Assembly: GCA_965238075.1 (NCBI GenBank)
Contig: OZ250173.1
Location: 2,848,001-2,912,000 of the forward strand
Source of the DNA: Candidatus Entotheonellaceae bacterium
GTDB lineage: Bacteria; Tectomicrobia; Entotheonellia; Entotheonellales; Entotheonellaceae
Reading direction: 5' to 3'
Length of the DNA stretch: 64,000 bases
Under the pieces are notes generated by a model. It searched no databases. It had not been told where the DNA came from and saw nothing but the letters and a program-made list of their open reading frames with translations. A program made the position numbers and the translations under genes. Below, piece after piece: positions 35,378 to 60,979 of the stretch; within the stretch, counting starts at the first letter, position 1, and every line of letters starts with the position of its first letter.

Positions 35378-36730
35378 TTATCGCTGAGACAGCCAGGCGC
35401 GGTCGCCATTCACCATATCATAGGTTCCCAGGCCGTCGCCGCTCCAATCGCAGGCCCGACCGGGATAGGTCAACTCGCTCCACGGCAGGGGCCGCACCCA
35501 CTCCTTGCTCTTCCACACGACGTCGAACTGACCATCTTCGCGGATTTTGCCGATGTAGACCGGCTTCCAGGTGTGATGGTTCTTCTCGTCGACCTTGTAA
35601 TTGCCGACGGGGCTGCTGACCGTCAGACCTTCCAGCGCCTTCAGAACCGGTTCGACGTCCGTGCTGCCGGCCTTCTCGACGGCCTGGGCCCACAGTTTGA
35701 CGTGCGTGTAGGCGTGCATCATCGGATCATCGGTCACGCACTGTTTGTCGGGGATGCCGCGCTTTTCGCACCATTTCTTGTACGCTTTCACCCACTTGAA
35801 GTTCTGCGGGGACTTCAGCGACATGTAGTAGTTCCAGGAAGCGAGATGGCCGGCCAGGGGCTTGACGTCCAGGGTCTGCAATTCGACCTCGGCAAAGCTG
35901 AACGAAATCACCGGACAGGTGTCGGCCGTGATGCCCTGATTGGCCAGTTCCTTGAAGAACGGCACATTGCTGTCGCCGTTGATGGTGTTGATCACAGCGC
36001 CATCACCGCCGGCACAGAAGCTTTTGATCTTGCCAACGATGGTCTGGTAATCCTGATGGTGAAACGGCGTGTATTCCTCAGCGATGCCGTCCTCCATGAC
36101 GCCCTTGGCCTTGGTGAGGTAGAGCCGCAGGATTTTGTTCGTGGTGCGCGGATAGACGTAGTCCGTACCTATAAGGTAGAAGCGCTTTTTGCCGCCGCCT
36201 TCCGGGCTCATCAGGTAATCCACCGCGGGAGAGGCTTGCTGGTTGATGGTCGCACCGGTATAGATGACGTTCTTGGAGCACTCTTCACCCTCGTACTGGA
36301 CAGGGTAGAAAAGGAGGCCGTTGTACTGCTCAAACACCGGCAGCACGGACTTGCGGCTGACCGAGGTCCAACAGCCAAAAACCGTCGCCACCTCATCTTG
36401 CGTTAGGAGCTTTTTGGCCTTTTCGGCAAAGAGGTCCCAATTCGAGGCGGGATCTTCCACGATCGGCTCGACAGGGCGCCCCAACACCCCACCAGCCTCG
36501 TTAATTTCCTCGATGGCCATGAGGATAATTTCCTTGAGGGGTCCCTCGCTGATGGCCATGGTGCCGCTCAGCGAATGCAACACGCCTACTTTGATGGGCT
36601 CCTGTGCCATGGCGCCGGTGCCCATCAGTCCCGCCAACAGGATAAGCGAGAGCCCGAGGGTGCAGGCCGTGCGTTTCACGGCCTGCCATTTGTGCGTGCG
36701 GGCCCAGCCCGCGGTGTGCAAGTTGGTCAC
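35378..36730 (-). CDS. urtA: Urea ABC transporter substrate-binding protein
   Basis: Signal peptide, IKVGVLHSLSGTMAISE, FGCWTSVSRKSVLPVFE, YPVQYEGEE, GTDYVYPRTTN. Confidence 0.95.
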   Translation of the reverse strand: MTNLHTAGWARTHKWQAVKRTACTLGLSLILLAGLMGTGAMAQEPIKVGVLHSLSGTMAISEGPLKEIILMAIEEINEAGGVLGRPVEPIVEDPASNWDLFAEKAKKLLTQDEVATVFGCWTSVSRKSVLPVFEQYNGLLFYPVQYEGEECSKNVIYTGATINQQASPAVDYLMSPEGGGKKRFYLIGTDYVYPRTTNKILRLYLTKAKGVMEDGIAEEYTPFHHQDYQTIVGKIKSFCAGGDGAVINTINGDSNVPFFKELANQGITADTCPVISFSFAEVELQTLDVKPLAGHLASWNYYMSLKSPQNFKWVKAYKKWCEKRGIPDKQCVTDDPMMHAYTHVKLWAQAVEKAGSTDVEPVLKALEGLTVSSPVGNYKVDEKNHHTWKPVYIGKIREDGQFDVVWKSKEWVRPLPWSELTYPGRACDWSGDGLGTYDMVNGDRAWLSQR

Positions 36731-36792
36731 GATGTTCTCCTTAGTAGCTTGAACGAGACAATGCTGCGGACTTTCGATGCTTGTCTAATGAC

Positions 36793-36809
36793 AGCAATTT
36801 GCATGCCAA
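36793..36809 (-). promoter_or_regulatory. Sigma-54 (-24/-12) promoter of the urt operon
   Basis: Minus strand TTGGCATGCAAATTGCT matches TGGCAY-N5-TTGCW, about 60 nt upstream of urtA. Confidence 0.8.
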
Positions 36810-37015
36810 CTGCGGATGGGGATGCCAAAGCCGTTGTCTGGGGCTGTCCGCCTTGGGTGCGAGACGCGGTAAGGAGTGACCAGCACTCTCTAAGGATGGC
36901 ATTAAAGTAACAACGGGATTGTTAGGCGAGGGACCATTTTTGTACGAATCGACATCTTTGTAAGTTTTGGTTTCCTTAAGGTGAGGCCCCGTGGATTGGG
37001 AGGCACCTCAGGGTG

Positions 37016-38287
37016 TCAAAGCAAGTCGAGGCTGGGCGTGATGACCAGATGCAGGCGTCGATGGGCCTCGCGCAGGGTCTGTTCGACCGCCTGTGGGGTT
37101 TCACCGCGGGCAAAAATGAACCCGGGGTAACTGGCGCCCTCGGGGAAGGGCTGGAGTTTCTCATGCGGCTTGGCGGTGATCACAACATCTTCGATGCCGG
37201 GAAGGCTGAGTGCCGCGTCCAGGCCCGTCACATGTTTGAAAAAACCAGCGCGGGGAATGGGTAGCATCATAGTTCCGGCAGCAGCCTGCTCGCGTTTCAG
37301 AGAGGGCAGAGGGAGGCCGCACGCGTGACGGATGAGCAGCTCTTCAAGGGACATCCCGGTCCCAAAGCGCAGCGAGCGGCTTCACAAGCCGCCGATGGGC
37401 CGGGCGGCGAGTTCGAGGAGCCAGGGGCCTTGGCCGTTGACCCGAAATTCGGCGTGCAAAGGACCGTGGCAGAGACCCAGGGTAAGGGCTGCCTGTTCGG
37501 CGCAGCGGACGATCTCGGCCTGCAGGTCCGCACTGAGACGGGAAGGGGTGATGTAGAGGGTTTCTTCAAAAAAAGGACCGTTCAGCGGGTCGGGCTTATC
37601 AAACAGGGCCAACGGTTGCAGACGGCCCGCGGTTAACAGACCTTCCAGGGCGACCTCGGCACCGGGAATGAAACTTTCGATGAGGATCCCTTCGTTGGCT
37701 TCATCTTGTTTCTGGCGTATTTCATGCCGTTCCAGCAAGGCGCGCAACCGAAGGAAGGCGGCAATAAATTCGGCCGGGGTATTGGCCCGCATGACACCGC
37801 GACTCGCCGACAGGGCGAGCGGCTTAACGACACATGGGTACGGAACCTCGTGTTGCACGAGACGGGGGTCGGTTTGCATCGGGAAACACATAAAAGCCGG
37901 CACTTGCGCAAAAGTCGCCTGCAGGCGCTGGCGCATGAGGTATTTGTTGTGGCTGGACAGCACGGCGTCCGGTGGATTGTGCAGCAAACCCAACTCGCGG
38001 CTCGCTTTCGCGGCGCTGAGAAGAGGGGTGTCACCCACGGGGAGAATGGCGGCGACGGGTTGCTGCCCAGCAACATCGACGATGCGCCGTGCGGCTTCCT
38101 GTGGGCGCTCAAACCGTAGCGGCACGGCATCGTCTTCCCAGGGATCGTCCAGAACATCACAGCGGTCGCTGCCGAGCACCGTTTCCACGCCGAGTTGCTG
38201 AGCCGTCCGTATGAATTCTCGTGCCTCATACCCTGTCGTCGTATACAGGAGCATGAGCCGGGAACGGCCGACGTCGGGTGTTGTCAT
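37016..38287 (-). CDS. ATP-grasp domain protein, predicted selenoprotein (UGA at 37382-37384 = Sec302)
   Basis: ORFs 37382.. and 37016..37354 are in one frame: VVKPLALSASRGVMRA...IESFIPGAEVALEG...DKPDPLNGPFFEET...HAEFR...LELAARPIGGL-TGA-SRSLRFGTGMSLEE...YPGFIFARG. A hairpin follows the UGA. Confidence 0.8.
37339..37381 (-). promoter_or_regulatory. Candidate SECIS element of the ATP-grasp gene
   Basis: 18 nt after UGA the mRNA reads GGGAC-CGGGAU-GUCCC, extendable by GCUUU/AGAGC; G-rich apical loop at about +24 to +29. Confidence 0.6.
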
Positions 38288-38339
38288 CCTGATTTCCCCA
38301 GACTGTGCGCATGGCCAGAGTACCAAGAAGACCTTGGTT

Positions 38340-39740
38340 CTAGAACGGAGCAACCTGCTCCTCGGTGGGTTCCGCTCAACAATACCACGGTTCATCAAGG
38401 TAAGGAACGGGCCCACGGGCTGGCGGGGCAACGGGGGCAGGCACCAGCGGAGCGGGAATTTGGGCGGCCTTGTGGGCGGCGTGCCAGAGGCGTTCAAATA
38501 TCTCATAGCGGCCGGCGCCTTCCGTCTCACCGCTTTGGACCAATTGGAGCGCCTCCGTGCAGAGGCCATCCATCCGTACGTCGGGATGTTCCCAGCGGTA
38601 CGACAGGGCGTCGGCGTCGAATTCCCGCAGCGACAGACCCATTTCGGGCAGGTCAAGCAGTTTGGAGCCGTCAGGGATCAGCAAGCGCATGGCGAGTTGG
38701 ATGGGTGCGACGTGTTCGATCAGACCTTGCGTGGCGATTACGGTCAGTAAGTCGATATAGTCGGGCAAAAAGGTCCAGGGCATGAAGGCGACAAAGGTCG
38801 GATTGAGGCAAATTTCGGCTTGCCTGCACCGGGCCAGAGCCTGGAGAAAATCCTGTCGGGTGTGGCCTTTATCGAGCAGACGCAGAACGCCATCCTGGAC
38901 GGACTCCACGGCGCTCGTCACCATCAGGCAGCCGGTTTGGCGGAGGGTGGGCAGATGCTCGTCATACCGCAACAGGTGTTCTATCTTGATGGTGACGTCG
39001 TAGGTGAGGCTGGGGAACTCCCGGTGCAGGTCATGCACCAACGGCACGGCGTGGCCGATACCGTTGAAAAAATCGGGGTCGCCAAAGGTCACGTGCTCGG
39101 CGCCGGCCGCGACCTGGCGCCGGATATCTTCCAGGACGACGTCCCTCTGCACGATGCGAAAACGGCCCTCATAGACCGGCACGATCGGACAATGGCGACA
39201 GAAGTGTTTGCAGCCGCGGCTGGCTTCCGTGTAGCCGACGACGTGTGACCGCTCGCCTATTTTGAGTTGGGCGTAAACTGGCAGGGGGGGTAAATCGCGC
39301 CGATCAGGTACCTGAAACTGTTGGCGATCCAGGGAAGTGACGACTTCCGGCTGTTGGGCAGGGGGTGTGGAATCTGTCTGAAGGCGTTGCACGAGTCGTA
39401 ACAGCCCAGATTCAAATTCCCCACCGAGCAGGGTGGCGGCCCCCAGTTCGCGTAACAATCGGTCATTCATGGGGGCGTAAAGGCCATAGAAGCAGAGGTG
39501 AGCTTGCGGGTTAAGGGTCTTGACATGTTTCGCAACCTGGATGGCAATCCGCGTTGCGGTGTGCATGGGGATGTAGAAGGCCACAAGGTCGGCCGCCAGA
39601 ATGGCCTCACGGTCCAGGCGACTGCGTGACAAATCCTGGCACCGAACCGTCGCTCCTGCCTGTCGTAGCCAAGCGGCAGGGGAAGCCAGGCCAAAAGGCT
39701 GCCGTCCCAATTCATAGGTTGCGAGGAGTACAACACGCAC
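38340..39740 (-). CDS. CUAEP-tail radical SAM selenoprotein with B12-binding-like N-terminal domain
   Basis: ASRGCKHFCRHC (CxxxCxxC). C-terminus reads PVPYLDEPWYC-TGA-AEPTEEQVAPF-TAG (TGA 38376-38378; true stop 38340-38342). Start is GTG 39740 or 39749. Confidence 0.88.
38343..38375 (-). promoter_or_regulatory. Candidate SECIS element of the radical SAM gene
   Basis: 14 nt after UGA the mRNA reads GGAGCA-GGU-UGCUCC (6-bp stem), with a lower GAAC/GUUC pairing; loop G at about +21. Confidence 0.7.
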
Positions 39741-39771
39741 CGTGGCCACCCTAACGGATGCCGCTCTCAAG

Positions 39772-40092
39772 CTAGCCCTTGCCCATTGGCGGAACGTACC
39801 CTGGCGGCAGGGCAGCGCCTTCGCCGAAAAAGAATTCTTCCATTTGCTGACGGATGAACTCGTCGGCTTGTGGGTCCATGACATTCAGACGGTATTCATT
39901 TAGAATCATCGTCAGGAAGCCTTTCCACAATTCCCAAGCCTCCATGGAGATGTTTTCATAGATACGTTGACGTAATTCAGCCCCTCCCATCGATTCAGTC
40001 ATTTCCAAGGCAATGCCGCCCTGAAGATCGTCCTCATCAATACCAGGAGCCTCTTTTTGAAGCTTTGTGCAGTAGACGAATCGTTGCGTCAT
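39772..40092 (-). CDS. yggX: Fe(II)-trafficking / Fe-S oxidative-damage protection protein
   Basis: VYCTKLQKEAPG...RIYENISMEAWELW...TMILNEYRLN...MEEFFFG...GYVPP. Confidence 0.85.
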   Translation of the reverse strand: MTQRFVYCTKLQKEAPGIDEDDLQGGIALEMTESMGGAELRQRIYENISMEAWELWKGFLTMILNEYRLNVMDPQADEFIRQQMEEFFFGEGAALPPGYVPPMGKG

Positions 40093-40112
40093 GGTTGAAC
40101 CTTTTCTCCCTG

Positions 40113-40421
40113 TCAGGCACCATCGTCTGCCGTTTCAGACGTTTCCACCGCTTTACTGTCACCCTTGAGGGTGCCGTTGCCGGAAATTGCGGTGGGGACA
40201 GGAGGGGCGCTCTCAGGCGGAGGGGCAGACTCAAAAGAGAGATGGCCAGCGGCAATTTCACGAACCGCGATGGTAAAAAAGCTGTCTGCCTCCTCAGGTG
40301 GTACCTGCGGCCGGGCGCCGTGCTGGAGTTGACGGATGCGTTTGGCGATCAGCATGGTCGTATGGTAGCGGTTTCCTACCACTTTAATGGCGGCATCAAG
40401 AAGAGCGTGCTGCTGTCTCAA
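40113..40421 (-). CDS. rpoZ: RNA polymerase omega subunit
   Basis: AIKVVGNRY...IAKRIRQLQHGARP...IAVREIAAG; TTG start 6 nt after GGAGG. Confidence 0.75.
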   Translation of the reverse strand: MRQQHALLDAAIKVVGNRYHTTMLIAKRIRQLQHGARPQVPPEEADSFFTIAVREIAAGHLSFESAPPPESAPPVPTAISGNGTLKGDSKAVETSETADDGA

Positions 40422-40481
40422 GAGATTCCTCCCGGAGCGTGCTCCGCGAACTAAGAGACCAATTGTGGTGATCAAGGCTCC

Positions 40482-40511
40482 ACTATAACATGCGCATTGA
40501 AATTCTTGCCA
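40482..40511 (-). promoter_or_regulatory. Sigma-70-type promoter (extended -10) for rpoZ-yggX-rSAM-ATP-grasp
   Basis: Minus strand TGGCAA-N18-TATAGT with TGn immediately before the -10. Confidence 0.5.
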
Positions 40512-40569
40512 CCTGTACGGGCAATCCTTTTGAGCGGCATTTTACATTGAGCGGGTGCTGCAGGGACAC

Positions 40570-41289
40570 ATGAACGTGAAAGCAACGCTGACTCAAAAAC
40601 GTGTCGCGGGGCTTATTCCGGCTGCCGGCAGTGGCGTCCGGATGGGTGGGGACATTGCGAAGCCGTTTTTGCAACTCGGCGGGCGAGAGATATTGGCCCG
40701 CACGTTGGACGTTTTTGAACGTTCTGCGGTTATCGATGAGTTATGGGTTGTCGTTGCGGCCAAAAATGTTTCTGCTTGCCAACAGGGAATCATCAAACGT
40801 TATGGATTCCGTAAAGTGCGCGACGTCGTGGCAGGGGGAGCGAGTCGCCAGGAATCGGTTTGGCGTGGTCTGCAGCGGATCGATGCGGCGGTTGACCTCG
40901 TGGTGGTTCATGATGGCGTGCGCCCTTTTGTAACGGAGGCGGTTTTGCAAGAAACGCTGGGTTGTGCCGCACAGCACGGTGCCGCCGTGGCAGCCGTGCC
41001 GCTGCGAGATACGCTGAAGCGCATCTCCGAAGGGGGAGTAGTTGAAGCAACGATCCCGCGGGAAAATTTGTGGCGTACGCAGACGCCGCAGGCATTTCAG
41101 CGGCATCTCCTGATGTCGGCGTATCGTCAGGCTTGGGAGCGAGGCGTGTGTGCGACAGATGACGCCGGTCTGCTCGAATCGATAGGACATCCGGTGAAAG
41201 TGGTCTCGGGGCTGGAAAGCAACATCAAGATTACGACCCCGGAAGACTTGATTTTCAGCGAAGGGTTGCTGCGCACCCCGCGTCAGTGA
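40570..41289 (+). CDS. ispD: 2-C-methyl-D-erythritol 4-phosphate cytidylyltransferase
   Basis: IPAAGSGVRMG, GGASRQESV, VHDGVRP, QTPQAF, TDDA, NIKITTPEDL. Confidence 0.95.
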   Translation: MNVKATLTQKRVAGLIPAAGSGVRMGGDIAKPFLQLGGREILARTLDVFERSAVIDELWVVVAAKNVSACQQGIIKRYGFRKVRDVVAGGASRQESVWRGLQRIDAAVDLVVVHDGVRPFVTEAVLQETLGCAAQHGAAVAAVPLRDTLKRISEGGVVEATIPRENLWRTQTPQAFQRHLLMSAYRQAWERGVCATDDAGLLESIGHPVKVVSGLESNIKITTPEDLIFSEGLLRTPRQ

Positions 41290-43253: not shown

Positions 43254-44447
43254 ATGTCGAAGGCGAAATTCAAGCGTAGCAAGCCGCACGTCAACGTCGG
43301 GACGATCGGTCACGTAGACCACGGCAAGACGACGCTCACGTCTGCCATAACGCAGGTACTGGCAGCGCAAGGCAAGGCGGACTATGTGCCCTTTGACCAG
43401 ATCGACAAGGCGCCCGAGGAAAAAGCCCGCGGCATCACCATTGCTACTGCACACGTGGAATACGAAAGCGAGAACCGCCACTACGCCCACGTCGATTGTC
43501 CGGGTCACGCCGACTACGTGAAGAACATGATCACGGGTGCAGCGCAGATGGACGGGGCGATCTTGGTGGTGAGTGCCGCCGATGGCGCGATGCCGCAGAC
43601 GCGCGAGCATATCCTGTTGGCGCGTCAGGTTGGGGTGCCCTACATCGTGGTGTTCATGAACAAAGTGGACATGGTGGACGATGAAGAGTTGCTGGACTTG
43701 GTGGAGTTGGAGTTGCGGGAGTTGCTTAGCAAGTACGAATTTCCTGGCGACGACATTCCGATTATCCGGGGCAGTGCACTGCAGGCCTTGGAGAGTGGCG
43801 ATCCGAGTGCTTCGGAGAGCGCTTGCGTCTTTGAGTTAATGGGTGCGATTGATGAATACGTGCCGACGCCGCAGCGCGCCATAGACCGGCCGTTTCTGAT
43901 GCCCGTGGAGGACGTATTCACGATATCGGGTCGAGGGACGGTGGCGACGGGTCGTATTGAGCGTGGCGTGGTGACGGTAGGCGACGATGTGGAGATCGTG
44001 GGGATGAAGGAGACGCACAAGACGGTGGCGACGGGCGTGGAGATGTTTCGGAAGATATTGGACCGTGGCGAGGCAGGTGATAACATAGGGGTATTGTTGC
44101 GCGGTGTGAAGCGCGATGAGATAGAGCGTGGTCAGGTATTGGCGAAGCCGGGTTCGATTACGCCACACACGCGTTTTCAGGCAGAGGTGTACGTGTTGTC
44201 GAAAGACGAGGGAGGTCGTCACACGCCGTTTTTCAATGGCTACCGGCCGCAGTTTTACTTTCGCACGACGGATGTGACGGGTGTGGTGACATTGCCCTCG
44301 GGTACGGAGATGGTGATGCCTGGGGACAACGTTGGCGTGGAGGTGGAGTTAATCACGCCGATTGCTTTGGAGAAAGAGTTGCGCTTTGCGATCCGTGAGG
44401 GCGGCCGGACGGTAGGGGCGGGCGTCGTTAGTGAAATACTGGCGTAG
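43254..44447 (+). CDS. tuf: Elongation factor Tu (copy 1)
   Basis: [35 protein letters not shown]. Confidence 0.99.
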
Positions 44448-57645: not shown

Positions 57646-59712
57646 GTGCCCCGGCTAGTCCCGTTGGAAAGAACACGTAACATCGGCATCATTGCGCACA
57701 TTGACGCGGGGAAGACGACAACGACTGAACGTATCCTCTATTACACGGGTAGGTCACATCGCCTGGGTGAAGTCCACGAAGGTTCTGCCACGATGGATTG
57801 GATGGTTCAGGAGCAGGAGCGAGGGATCACGATCACCTCCGCTGCCACGACGTGTTCCTGGGGTGATCACGTCATCAACATCATTGACACACCGGGGCAC
57901 GTGGACTTTACGGCCGAAGTGGAACGGAGCTTGCGCGTGCTTGATGGCGCGGTGGGCCTTTTCTGCGCGGTAGGAGGTGTGGAGCCGCAATCGGAGACCG
58001 TGTGGCGTCAGGCGGAGAAGTATCGTGTGCCACGCATAGCATTCGTGAATAAGTTGGACCGCGCAGGGGCCGATTTTTTTCGCACGATAAGGGCGATGAA
58101 AGATCGATTGGGGACCTCTCCAGTGGTTTTACAACTGCCATTGGGCAGTGAGGAGAAGTTCTGCGGGGTGATCGACCTACTACGAATGCAAGCACTCGTT
58201 TACGACGAGGACAACCTGGGAGTTGGGTACCGTACGACGGACATTCCTGATTCTTACCACGAGCAGGCGAGACAATACCAAGCGCGTCTGGTCGAAGATG
58301 TGGCAGAATTGGACGATGCTCTCATGGAGCGGTATTTAGCCGAGGAGGTTGTTACTCCTGGAGACCTCGCCAAGGTAATCCGTCAAGGTACAATCAACAA
58401 TCAAATCACACCGGTTTTCTGTGGTGCTGCATTCCGGAATAAAGGCGTCCAACCCCTGCTGGATGGCATTGTCGATTACTTACCCTCACCTGTCGATGTC
58501 CCCCCCATGGTTGGCATAGAATCCAAAACAGGAGAAAGAATTTTCCGTGCGGCCGACGACAATGCCCTAGCGGCGTTAGCGTTCAAAGTCATGGTTGACC
58601 CTTATGTGGGACAATTAGTCTTCGTGCGGGTTTACTCCGGGGTGTTAGAGGCAGGTTCTTACGTGTACAACTCCACTAAGGGTAAACAAGAACGCATCGG
58701 GCGCCTGATGAAAATGCATGCCAACAAGAGAGAGGACGTGAAGGTAATTCAGGCTGGAGACATCGGTGCGGTAATCGGTCTGAAGACTACAGCAACCGGC
58801 GATACGTTGTGCGACACCTCTCAGCCAGTCGTCTTGGAAGCGATAACGTTCCCTGAGCCAGTGATGGCGATCGCTATTGAACCAAAGACCAAAGCTGACA
58901 GCGATAAACTGGGCATGTCGCTCAGTAAAATCTCTCGAGAGGACCCGACCTTCCGGGTGCGGATTGACAAAGAAACCGGTCAAACCATCATTTCCGGTAT
59001 GGGCGAGTTACACCTCGAAATTCTCGTGGACCGTCTAGCACGGGAATTTCAGGTTGCTGCTCACGTGTCCCGCCCTCAGGTGGCATACAGGGAATCGATT
59101 CAGCGTGCCGCAGAATCCGAAGGACGCTTTGTGAGACAGAGCGGTGGCCGAGGGCAATATGGTCACGTTAAGATGCGCTTTGAGCCCTTGGAACGCGGCG
59201 TTGGGTATGTTTTTGAAGACGACATTGTTGGCGGGGCGGTGCCCAAGGAATACATCTCGGCCGTAGAGGCGGGTGTCGCCGAGGCAATGCGGCATGGTAT
59301 TCTCATGGGACACCCGGTAGTCGATCTGAAAGCTACTCTCTACGATGGGTCGTATCACGATGTTGATTCTTCGGAACTGGCTTTTAAGGTAGCAGCGTCC
59401 ATGGCATTTAAGGAAGCCGTAAAAAAAGCTGATCCAGTGATTCTGGAGCCTATCGTGAGTGTTGAAGTCGTGGTTCCAAATGAATACCTGGGTGATATTA
59501 TTGGCGATCTGAATAGCCGTCGAGGCAAAGTGCGAGGCATGGAAGATCGGGCTGGTGCTAAAGTTGTGTCGGGCCATGTGCCGTTAGCAGAGATGTTTGG
59601 CTACGCTACAGACCTGCGTTCCCGGACGCAGGGACGGGCGACATTTACGATGCAGTTTGCGCTCTACGAGACCGTTCCATCCCATAAGCAAACGGAGTTG
59701 TGTGCCTTGTAG
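57646..59712 (+). CDS. fusA: Elongation factor G
   Basis: [43 protein letters not shown] start. Confidence 0.98.
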
Positions 59713-59785: not shown

Positions 59786-60979
59786 ATGTCGAAGGCGAAA
59801 TTCAAGCGTAGCAAGCCGCACGTCAACGTCGGGACGATCGGTCACGTAGACCACGGCAAGACGACGCTCACGTCTGCCATAACGCAGGTACTGGCAGCGC
59901 AAGGCAAGGCGGACTATGTGCCCTTTGACCAGATCGACAAGGCGCCCGAGGAAAAAGCCCGCGGCATCACCATTGCTACTGCACACGTGGAATACGAAAG
60001 CGAGAACCGCCACTACGCCCACGTCGATTGTCCGGGTCACGCCGACTACGTGAAGAACATGATCACGGGTGCAGCGCAGATGGACGGGGCGATCTTGGTG
60101 GTGAGTGCCGCCGATGGCGCGATGCCGCAGACGCGCGAGCATATCCTGTTGGCGCGTCAGGTTGGGGTGCCCTACATCGTGGTGTTCATGAACAAAGTGG
60201 ACATGGTGGACGATGAAGAGTTGCTGGACTTGGTGGAGTTGGAGTTGCGGGAGTTGCTTAGCAAGTACGAATTTCCTGGCGACGACATTCCGATTATCCG
60301 GGGCAGTGCACTGCAGGCCTTGGAGAGTGGCGATCCGAGTGCTTCGGAGAGCGCTTGCGTCTTTGAGTTAATGGGTGCGATTGATGAATACGTGCCGACG
60401 CCGCAGCGCGCCATAGACCGGCCGTTTCTGATGCCCGTGGAGGACGTATTCACGATATCGGGTCGAGGGACGGTGGCGACGGGTCGTATTGAGCGTGGCG
60501 TGGTGACGGTAGGCGACGATGTGGAGATCGTGGGGATGAAGGAGACGCACAAGACGGTGGCGACGGGCGTGGAGATGTTTCGGAAGATATTGGACCGTGG
60601 CGAGGCAGGTGATAACATAGGGGTATTGTTGCGCGGTGTGAAGCGCGATGAGATAGAGCGTGGTCAGGTATTGGCGAAGCCGGGTTCGATTACGCCACAC
60701 ACGCGTTTTCAGGCAGAGGTGTACGTGTTGTCGAAAGACGAGGGAGGTCGTCACACGCCGTTTTTCAATGGCTACCGGCCGCAGTTTTACTTTCGCACGA
60801 CGGATGTGACGGGTGTGGTGACATTGCCCTCGGGTACGGAGATGGTGATGCCTGGGGACAACGTTGGCGTGGAGGTGGAGTTAATCACGCCGATTGCTTT
60901 GGAGAAAGAGTTGCGCTTTGCGATCCGTGAGGGCGGCCGGACGGTAGGGGCGGGCGTCGTTAGTGAAATACTGGCGTAG
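59786..60979 (+). CDS. tuf: Elongation factor Tu (copy 2)
   Basis: Same protein sequence as copy 1. Confidence 0.99.

Follow-up and report, generated by a model that had tools for sequence, protein, structure and literature searches.

The 64,000-nucleotide (nt) stretch of Candidatus Entotheonellaceae bacterium DNA analyzed here (the window) encodes on its minus strand two neighboring enzymes, a radical S-adenosylmethionine (SAM) protein and an ATP-grasp ligase, whose genes each contain one in-frame TGA that is best read, on the sequence comparisons given below, as a codon for selenocysteine (Sec, U). The radical SAM protein belongs to a curated NCBIfam family, NF040546, and being already known is not a discovery; the predicted Sec ligase is new, in that an ATP-grasp ligase has not been recognized before as a selenoprotein. 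Together with yggX, or with an Nfu gene, the two genes make up a cassette whose conservation in at least seven phyla is strongly supported. It is likely that these are two selenoproteins of one three-gene cassette, in which a radical SAM step resembling that of ArsL is followed by a ligation and YggX or Nfu attends to the iron-sulfur (Fe-S) cluster. The four co-directional and tightly packed genes of the region (37016-40475, in the order rpoZ, yggX, radical SAM gene, ATP-grasp gene) and the features within them are as follows.

37016..38287, minus strand: ATP-grasp, L-amino-acid-ligase-like putative selenoprotein, 423 amino acids (aa); Pfam ATP-grasp_4, LAL_C2, ATPgrasp_N
37382..37384, minus strand: UGA codon of the ligase gene, read as Sec (U302), in the motif R-x-I-G-G-L-(U/C)-S-R
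37348..37363, minus strand: hairpin of the ligase gene resembling a Sec insertion sequence (SECIS), GGGAC-CGGGAU-GUCCC, 18 nt past the UGA
38340..39740, minus strand: radical SAM putative selenoprotein, 466 aa, GTG start; NF040546, translation and alignments
38376..38378, minus strand: UGA codon of the radical SAM gene, read as Sec (U455) from the TGA/Cys comparison with family members
38342..38373, minus strand: SECIS-like stem-loop of the radical SAM gene, lower stem GGAAC/GUUCU, upper stem GGAGC/GCUCC, loop AGGUU
39772..40092, minus strand: yggX, Fe(2+)-trafficking and oxidative-damage protection protein; NF003817, 98.8 bits against a cut-off of 74; Pfam Iron_traffic
40113..40421, minus strand: rpoZ, RNA polymerase omega; TIGR00690, 36.1 bits against a cut-off of 23.6; Pfam RNA_pol_Rpb6

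Probable selenocysteine codons in two adjacent genes

Translated with TGA as U, the ATP-grasp frame contains one internal TGA (U302), from which 121 more codons lead to the gene's own TGA stop. The internal TGA falls in the motif R-x-I-G-G-L-*-S-R in 9/9 genomic orthologues (that of the window and eight others, 67-98% identical and from three genera) and in 3 of 80 metagenome loci, the remaining 77 having Cys. Cys also occupies the site in three paralogues from the same phylum and in 51/51 cassette ligases of other phyla, which brings the tabulation proposed by the original prediction to 12 TGA and 131 Cys, and column 302 is invariant in 62/62 alignment rows when U is shown as C. A tree was built from 60 ligases, those among 93 loci that gave one match only, of 380 aa or more; in it the nine Sec ligases form one clade with an SH-aLRT support of 99, which points to a single Cys-to-Sec change. 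That coding selection runs on past the TGA is strongly supported by codon comparison: in the eight codons that separate the TGA from the next ATG, 101 pairwise differences are synonymous and 50 non-synonymous, and in codons 311-423 the pairwise differences number 1169, 918 and 3387 at first, second and third positions. A second independent Sec ligase, suspected in a genome of another phylum (G073), was rejected since the TGA there is the ordinary stop of the gene and the site itself is Cys. Neither the NCBIfam models nor the literature searched, which left subscription journals largely outside, describes an ATP-grasp selenoprotein.

The radical SAM frame likewise holds exactly one internal TGA (U455), followed by the 11 codons AEPTEEQVAPF and a TAG stop. 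The protein has the motif C177-KHF-C181-RH-C184 and the tail EPWYC-U-AEPTEEQVAPF, and both the CxxxCxxC motif and the CUAEP/CCAEP tail are invariant across 48 alignment rows. Its score against NF040546, the family of CUAEP/CCAEP-tail radical SAM (seleno)proteins, is 632.3 bits (cut-off 500), with model positions 1-467 of 468 covered, and it is thus an end-to-end member that differs in nothing from a family whose function is uncharacterized. The scan of 185,579 species genomes yielded at least 594 relatives, the best 80 loci of which were analyzed; at the Sec site these loci, all from other phyla, have TGA in 51 and Cys in 29. Within the phylum of the window a member above the cut-off is encoded by 15 of 17 genomes, with a single TGA in 15/15. 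In the literature searched the family or its motif is mentioned by name only in a preprint (Haft 2022), which describes the family as uncharacterized and the CU motif as rare.

The original prediction had also placed a hairpin behind each TGA, and both are present: GGAGC-AGGUU-GCUCC begins 14 nt past the TGA of the radical SAM gene and GGGAC-CGGGAU-GUCCC 18 nt past that of the ligase gene. The ligase hairpin, in the form GGGRC-CGGGAU-GUCCC, occurs in 12/12 Sec forms and in 0/55 Cys forms; one A-to-G change is seen among the Sec forms, with a G-U pair kept, and two Cys ligases encode the same peptide FGTGMSL by other codons that do not form the hairpin. At the foot of the upper stem 29 of 41 radical SAM Sec forms have a G-C pair and 8 an A-U pair, so that both sides have changed with pairing kept. 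The hairpins, as candidate SECIS elements, were compared with the general bacterial consensus.

All components of the Sec machinery are found in the genome, a single contig of 3.35 Mb: selA (606.7 bits), selB (357.7 bits) and selD (318.8 bits), each above its cut-off, and a tRNA-SeC with anticodon tca at genome positions 617194-617290 (ARAGORN). Since TGA also serves as the plain stop of rpoZ and of the ligase itself within the same operon, a genetic code in which TGA is sense offers no explanation of the internal codons. With a UGA in frame on a Cys column, a hairpin 14-18 nt downstream whose loop is rich in G, and a genome that carries selA, selB, selD and tRNA-Sec, both genes resemble the classical bacterial Sec/Cys selenoprotein pairs. 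The Sec reading that had been proposed for both codons is therefore upheld by the Cys-column alignments, by the continued coding and by the genomic machinery, and what follows each TGA is meaningful in frame as had been claimed, namely the CUAEP tail in one protein and the LAL_C2 domain in the other.

Truncation by standard gene callers, foreseen for both genes, is borne out for the ligase, which the databases hold in pieces of 301 and 112 aa. Among the 120 best-listed clusters 30 end at ...IGGx, with 73-100% identity, and one of these 30, an NCBI entry of 301 aa, is named 'ATP-grasp domain-containing protein [Candidatus Tectomicrobia bacterium]'; for the C-terminal piece, 72 of the 120 matches listed as best are open reading frames (ORFs) of exactly 112 aa that begin MSL or MSH. 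These are exactly the ORFs to be expected were the TGA a true stop, leaving either two polypeptides (301 + 112 aa, with a restart at the ATG 27 nt downstream) or a pseudogene, and a GGGA upstream of the restart ATG would suit such a split. So would a database protein (P0035, 366 aa, 67% identical) that is without the TGA, its Sec site reading IGGFEAARLRF instead of IGGL-U-SR-x-LRF at unchanged length; this looks like a local frame change removing the TGA, and could be a natural Sec loss or an assembly error. A split gene is nonetheless highly improbable, given that the TGA lies exactly on the invariant Cys column and has been retained over three genera at 67% identity, that the eight codons between TGA and ATG are under purifying selection in frame, that the restart Met is conserved also in the unsplit Cys forms (FGTGMSL), that the hairpin is specific to the TGA forms, and that the genome possesses Sec machinery.

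A recurrent cassette and its surroundings

The prediction that the two enzymes are functionally linked is sustained by their neighborhoods, since the radical SAM/ATP-grasp/yggX set recurs in seven phyla outside that of the window. Conservation of the gene neighborhood, which had been put forward as a check, is seen in 54/80 loci of other phyla, where a ligase gene is no more than 6 kb away from the radical SAM gene, or in 37/48 when the count is confined to loci flanked on either side by 4 kb or more; in 32 of the 54 the ligase gene follows immediately downstream in the same orientation, 150 nt away at most. The gene for YggX adjoins the radical SAM gene in 41/80. Pairing of the two enzymes is found in Acidobacteriota (38/50 loci) and also in Methylomirabilota, Pseudomonadota, Latescibacterota, Verrucomicrobiota, Gemmatimonadota and Actinomycetota. 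In 26 genomes no ligase gene adjoins the radical SAM gene; 18 of these have one at another place (E at most 1e-40), and in 8 none was found. Within the window's own phylum the order yggX-radical SAM-ligase is kept in three genera, and a fourth has yggX-radical SAM with no ligase gene beside it; counting genera other than that of the window, yggX adjoins the radical SAM gene in 4.

The link with rpoZ is of another kind. The adjacency of rpoZ and yggX is seen in 4/4 loci fetched from the window's genus and in no other genus, and rpoZ is therefore a neighbor only, outside the conserved cassette. The original prediction had counted it as a member of the unit and had taken linkage to core genes as a clue to a housekeeping role; confined as it is to a single genus, the linkage gives no such clue.

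Other genes that recur in the 88 loci surveyed for neighbors are those for aconitase (36), glucose-6-phosphate dehydrogenase (G6PD; 16), an Nfu-type Fe-S carrier (11) and a DUF169 protein (10), which with YggX lend the surroundings of the cassette a flavor of Fe-S metabolism and oxidative stress. For aconitase and G6PD the recurrence comes largely from Acidobacteriota and may reflect lineage. In a genome of the same phylum as the window (G015; L024, 8633-9815) a Sec radical SAM gene is followed by genes for NifU-domain and DUF169 proteins, with a ligase homologue on another contig; apart from these NifU-domain and DUF169 genes in that one genome, no common substitute partner was found at the in-phylum radical SAM loci without an adjacent ligase.

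The genome of the window contains a second ligase copy (2400419-2401654), a Cys form with 48% identity whose place in the tree is among cassette ligases from other phyla, outside the Sec clade. It sits between genes for a dehydrogenase dependent on pyrroloquinoline quinone (PQQ) and for adenylosuccinate synthetase (purA), with a MiaB-like radical SAM gene nearby. Considered as a possible second cassette, it was rejected because this neighborhood is unrelated and holds no cassette.

Spacing within the four-gene array is as close as had been described, with gaps of about 20, 31 and 52 nt from rpoZ through yggX and the radical SAM gene to the ATP-grasp gene. The single candidate promoter that had been placed in front of the array did not reappear, as a sigma-70 scan of the minus strand over 36700-40750 gave no site; taken together, the promoter (sigma-70) and terminator scans returned no minus-strand feature at the locus. 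The rpoZ gene probably starts with the TTG at 40421, preceded by GGGAGGAA, and its reading frame is open as far as 40475.

Contigs assembled from the RNA libraries of two studies cover the locus. One contig of 13 kb spans 36900-40600, and from the second study, which bears the label sponge metagenome, contigs at 38717-40191 and 38762-40600 take in rpoZ, yggX and the radical SAM gene in its 5' part. The two TGAs are bridged by another pair of RNA-library contigs, at 37897-38438 and 37260-37761. Among the 40 listed of 63 differences in the RNA-library contigs both TGA codons are unaltered.

Directly downstream of the ligase gene, on the minus strand at 35378-36730, is a gene for a 450-aa periplasmic binding protein, presumed to be the substrate-binding protein of a urea or branched-chain amino-acid ATP-binding cassette (ABC) transporter, which is syntenic only within the genus. 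The selB model gave partial matches elsewhere in the window, at 43290-44165 and 59822-60712 (about 180 bits each) and more weakly at 57679-58074 (28.1 bits, E 1.1e-6); these probably represent two copies of tuf and a further translation GTPase, by which the window would take in a region of ribosomal or translation genes.

Proposed chemistry and the place of selenium

The assignment of the ligase as an L-amino-acid-ligase-type ATP-grasp enzyme is strongly supported by sequence comparison. Its Pfam domains ATP-grasp_4 (105.5 bits), LAL_C2 (61.1 bits, E 1.2e-16) and ATPgrasp_N (30.0 bits) all score above gathering, the LAL_C2 match corresponding to the part encoded downstream of the U302 TGA. Among proteins of solved structure the best match is BL00235 (PDB 3VOT), aligned over its full length with E 3.2e-36, and the next BacD (3VMM), with both of which the ligase shares the three-domain architecture of ATP-grasp, LAL_C2 and ATPgrasp_N; no NCBIfam family reaches its cut-off, the best being PRK02186 with 100.9 bits against 625. 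Where the relatives differ is at position 302, which is Ser in BL00235 and Met334 in BacD, invariant Cys in the ligase family and apparently Sec here. In the alignment with BacD the position falls two residues past Trp332, which a review describes as a key residue in the pocket that binds substrate, and six past a conserved Arg. As neither BL00235 nor BacD has Cys at the site, a redox or nucleophilic step would be unusual for this ligase family. The family has a second invariant Cys, C152, in the sequence YPCVVKP just ahead of the ATP-binding Lys, and a near-invariant C43.

The second-best model for the radical SAM protein, after NF040546, is ArsL (NF040542; 276.4 bits over residues 4-404). 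ArsL forms the carbon-arsenic bond in arsinothricin biosynthesis. According to two preprints it has the canonical CxxxCxxC motif and yet cleaves SAM to the 3-amino-3-carboxypropyl radical, its substrate As(III) being held by the cysteines of a C-terminal RCCLKC sequence. The window protein is like ArsL in its homology across the catalytic body and in having a Cys-rich C-terminal tail. It is unlike ArsL in that the tail is C-U-A-E-P, offering two chalcogen ligands, in place of R-C-C-L-K-C with three; in the additional conserved cysteines of its family, the invariant C271 and the near-invariant C83, which fall outside the six conserved cysteines described for ArsL; and in its partners, which are the ATP-grasp ligase and YggX or Nfu, arsM and arsQ not being among the recurrent neighbors.

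If ArsL is a guide, the radical SAM enzyme would cleave SAM to the 3-amino-3-carboxypropyl radical, which would then be added to a soft atom held on the Cys-Sec tail to give a methionine-like amino acid. The ligase would join this amino acid to a partner at the expense of ATP, with Cys or Sec302 either touching the same soft atom or taking part in a redox or nucleophilic step, and YggX, replaced by Nfu in other lineages, would supply or repair the Fe-S cluster.

A number of observations weigh against parts of this scheme or narrow what can be drawn from its evidence. The regions of the two hairpins fold with energies no better than those of shuffled sequence (z -1.24 and -0.10), and the mean fold of ligase sites is -13.4 kcal/mol for Sec forms against -16.5 for Cys forms, so that the Sec forms are not more stable; folding energy was accordingly rejected as evidence of SECIS elements, and the significance of the hairpins derives instead from the comparison with relatives. 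Unlike classical SECIS elements they match no Rfam SECIS model, a search of 36900-40600 with E up to 10 returning only a chance mir-132 match on the other strand. RNAalifold did not recover the whole hairpin from the 41 radical SAM Sec sites, because in part of the sequences the 3' arm is off by one base. DNA may be present in RNA libraries of this sort, and contigs from them do not establish that there is one transcript, where it ends or on which strand it runs. An adjacent ligase is found in 0/6 Chloroflexota loci, and in 8/80 of the genomes that bear the radical SAM gene, mostly incomplete metagenome-assembled genomes, no ligase was found at all; the radical SAM enzyme may thus act without it. 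With 50 of the 80 loci from Acidobacteriota, part of the synteny is due to shared ancestry. The ArsL model score lies under its cut-off (276.4 against 450) and the RCCLKC tail is absent, so that ArsL-like chemistry is only an analogy, and residue 302 is placed in the pocket from a sequence alignment and not from a structure.

Selenium appears to be a catalytic refinement of some lineages. Cys forms make up 29/80 of the radical SAM homologues and 128/131 of the ligase homologues outside the window's phylum; Sec in the ligase was seen only where the radical SAM enzyme also has Sec, whereas radical SAM Sec is combined with ligase Cys in 30 loci and both enzymes have Cys in 21. Among the 29 genomes with a Cys-form radical SAM gene selD was found in 23 and not in 6, one of the latter a genome of 10.8 Mb. 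Because Cys forms are common and selD was not found in these 6, selenium is not obligatory for the pathway, and the earlier notion of one selenium-dependent pathway is retained for the linkage of the two enzymes and abandoned as regards a general dependence on selenium. In 7 of the 23 selD-positive genomes with a Cys-Cys-tail radical SAM protein (G044, G050, G054, G055, G060, G061 and G065) selD itself has one in-frame TGA, from which it follows that Sec is decoded there while the cassette uses Cys.

These distributions also bear on a pathway obligately dependent on selenium, in which selenium would be the substrate, as for instance in the transfer of the aminocarboxypropyl group to selenide to give a product of the selenohomocysteine type. 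Sec in both enzymes here, radical SAM Sec in 51/80 loci elsewhere, and selD in most Cys-form genomes (23/29, a figure taken by itself and not set against a background rate for these phyla) would fit such a pathway, as would the rarity of the CU dipeptide and its tie to soft-metal chemistry, as described in Haft 2022. It is quite unlikely all the same: both enzymes often have Cys, the 6 genomes, including that of 10.8 Mb, yielded no selD, and selenium-transfer genes are not among the recurrent neighbors. The modification of a macromolecule is a different possibility, in which the aminocarboxypropyl group would be placed on a protein residue as by Dph2 (Cys/Sec302 of the ligase or the enzyme's own tail being possible targets) and the ligase would add an amino acid to a C-terminus or a side chain. 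Dph2, the other known enzyme of the aminocarboxypropyl radical, does modify a protein; transporter and export genes are not conserved among the recurrent neighbors, and these neighbors are housekeeping Fe-S and redox genes (aconitase 36, G6PD 16, Nfu 11 of 88). Against this, the nearest solved ligases, BL00235 and BacD, join free amino acids, the nearest relative ArsL works on a small molecule, and a candidate gene for a substrate peptide never recurs in the neighborhoods, for which reasons we regard a macromolecular target as unlikely.

Sec usually takes the place of a redox-active Cys, and the mobile Cys-Sec tail of thioredoxin reductase offers a comparison for a third possibility, that of a redox relay in which the Cys-Sec tail and Cys/Sec302 are not substrate binders and the cassette belongs to a response of oxidative stress or Fe-S repair. 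The recurrence of YggX, Nfu, aconitase and G6PD nearby would be in keeping with it. The synteny of aconitase and G6PD is, however, largely acidobacterial and possibly the result of lineage inertia, a redox step is not known for ATP-grasp ligases, and the homologous tail of ArsL binds substrate rather than electrons, so that a relay has a low probability. An extension of the scheme preferred here, speculative and on balance doubtful, is that a single intermediate is covalently shared by the Cys/Sec residues of both enzymes: a soft atom such as Se, S, As or Te would be aminocarboxypropylated on the tail and passed by chalcogen exchange to Sec302, and the product would be an organo-chalcogen or organo-metalloid dipeptide serving as redox buffer or antimetabolite in many soil and sponge-associated phyla.

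For the databases the result corrects a systematic annotation error, by which a ligase gene is stored as fragments of 301 and 112 aa in dozens of clusters, and the list of selenoproteins gains a predicted ATP-grasp enzyme of the L-amino-acid-ligase type. Since Sec normally takes over only from a chemically active Cys, the family-invariant Cys302 is likely functional, and U/C302 and the CU tail are experimental handles on the two enzymes. If the covalently shared intermediate were true, the ligase would be the first of the ATP-grasp type with a catalytic chalcogen residue. For the ArsL-like cassette, widespread and unstudied, the apparent use of Sec in two consecutive enzymes strengthens the case for an intermediate that contains a soft atom.

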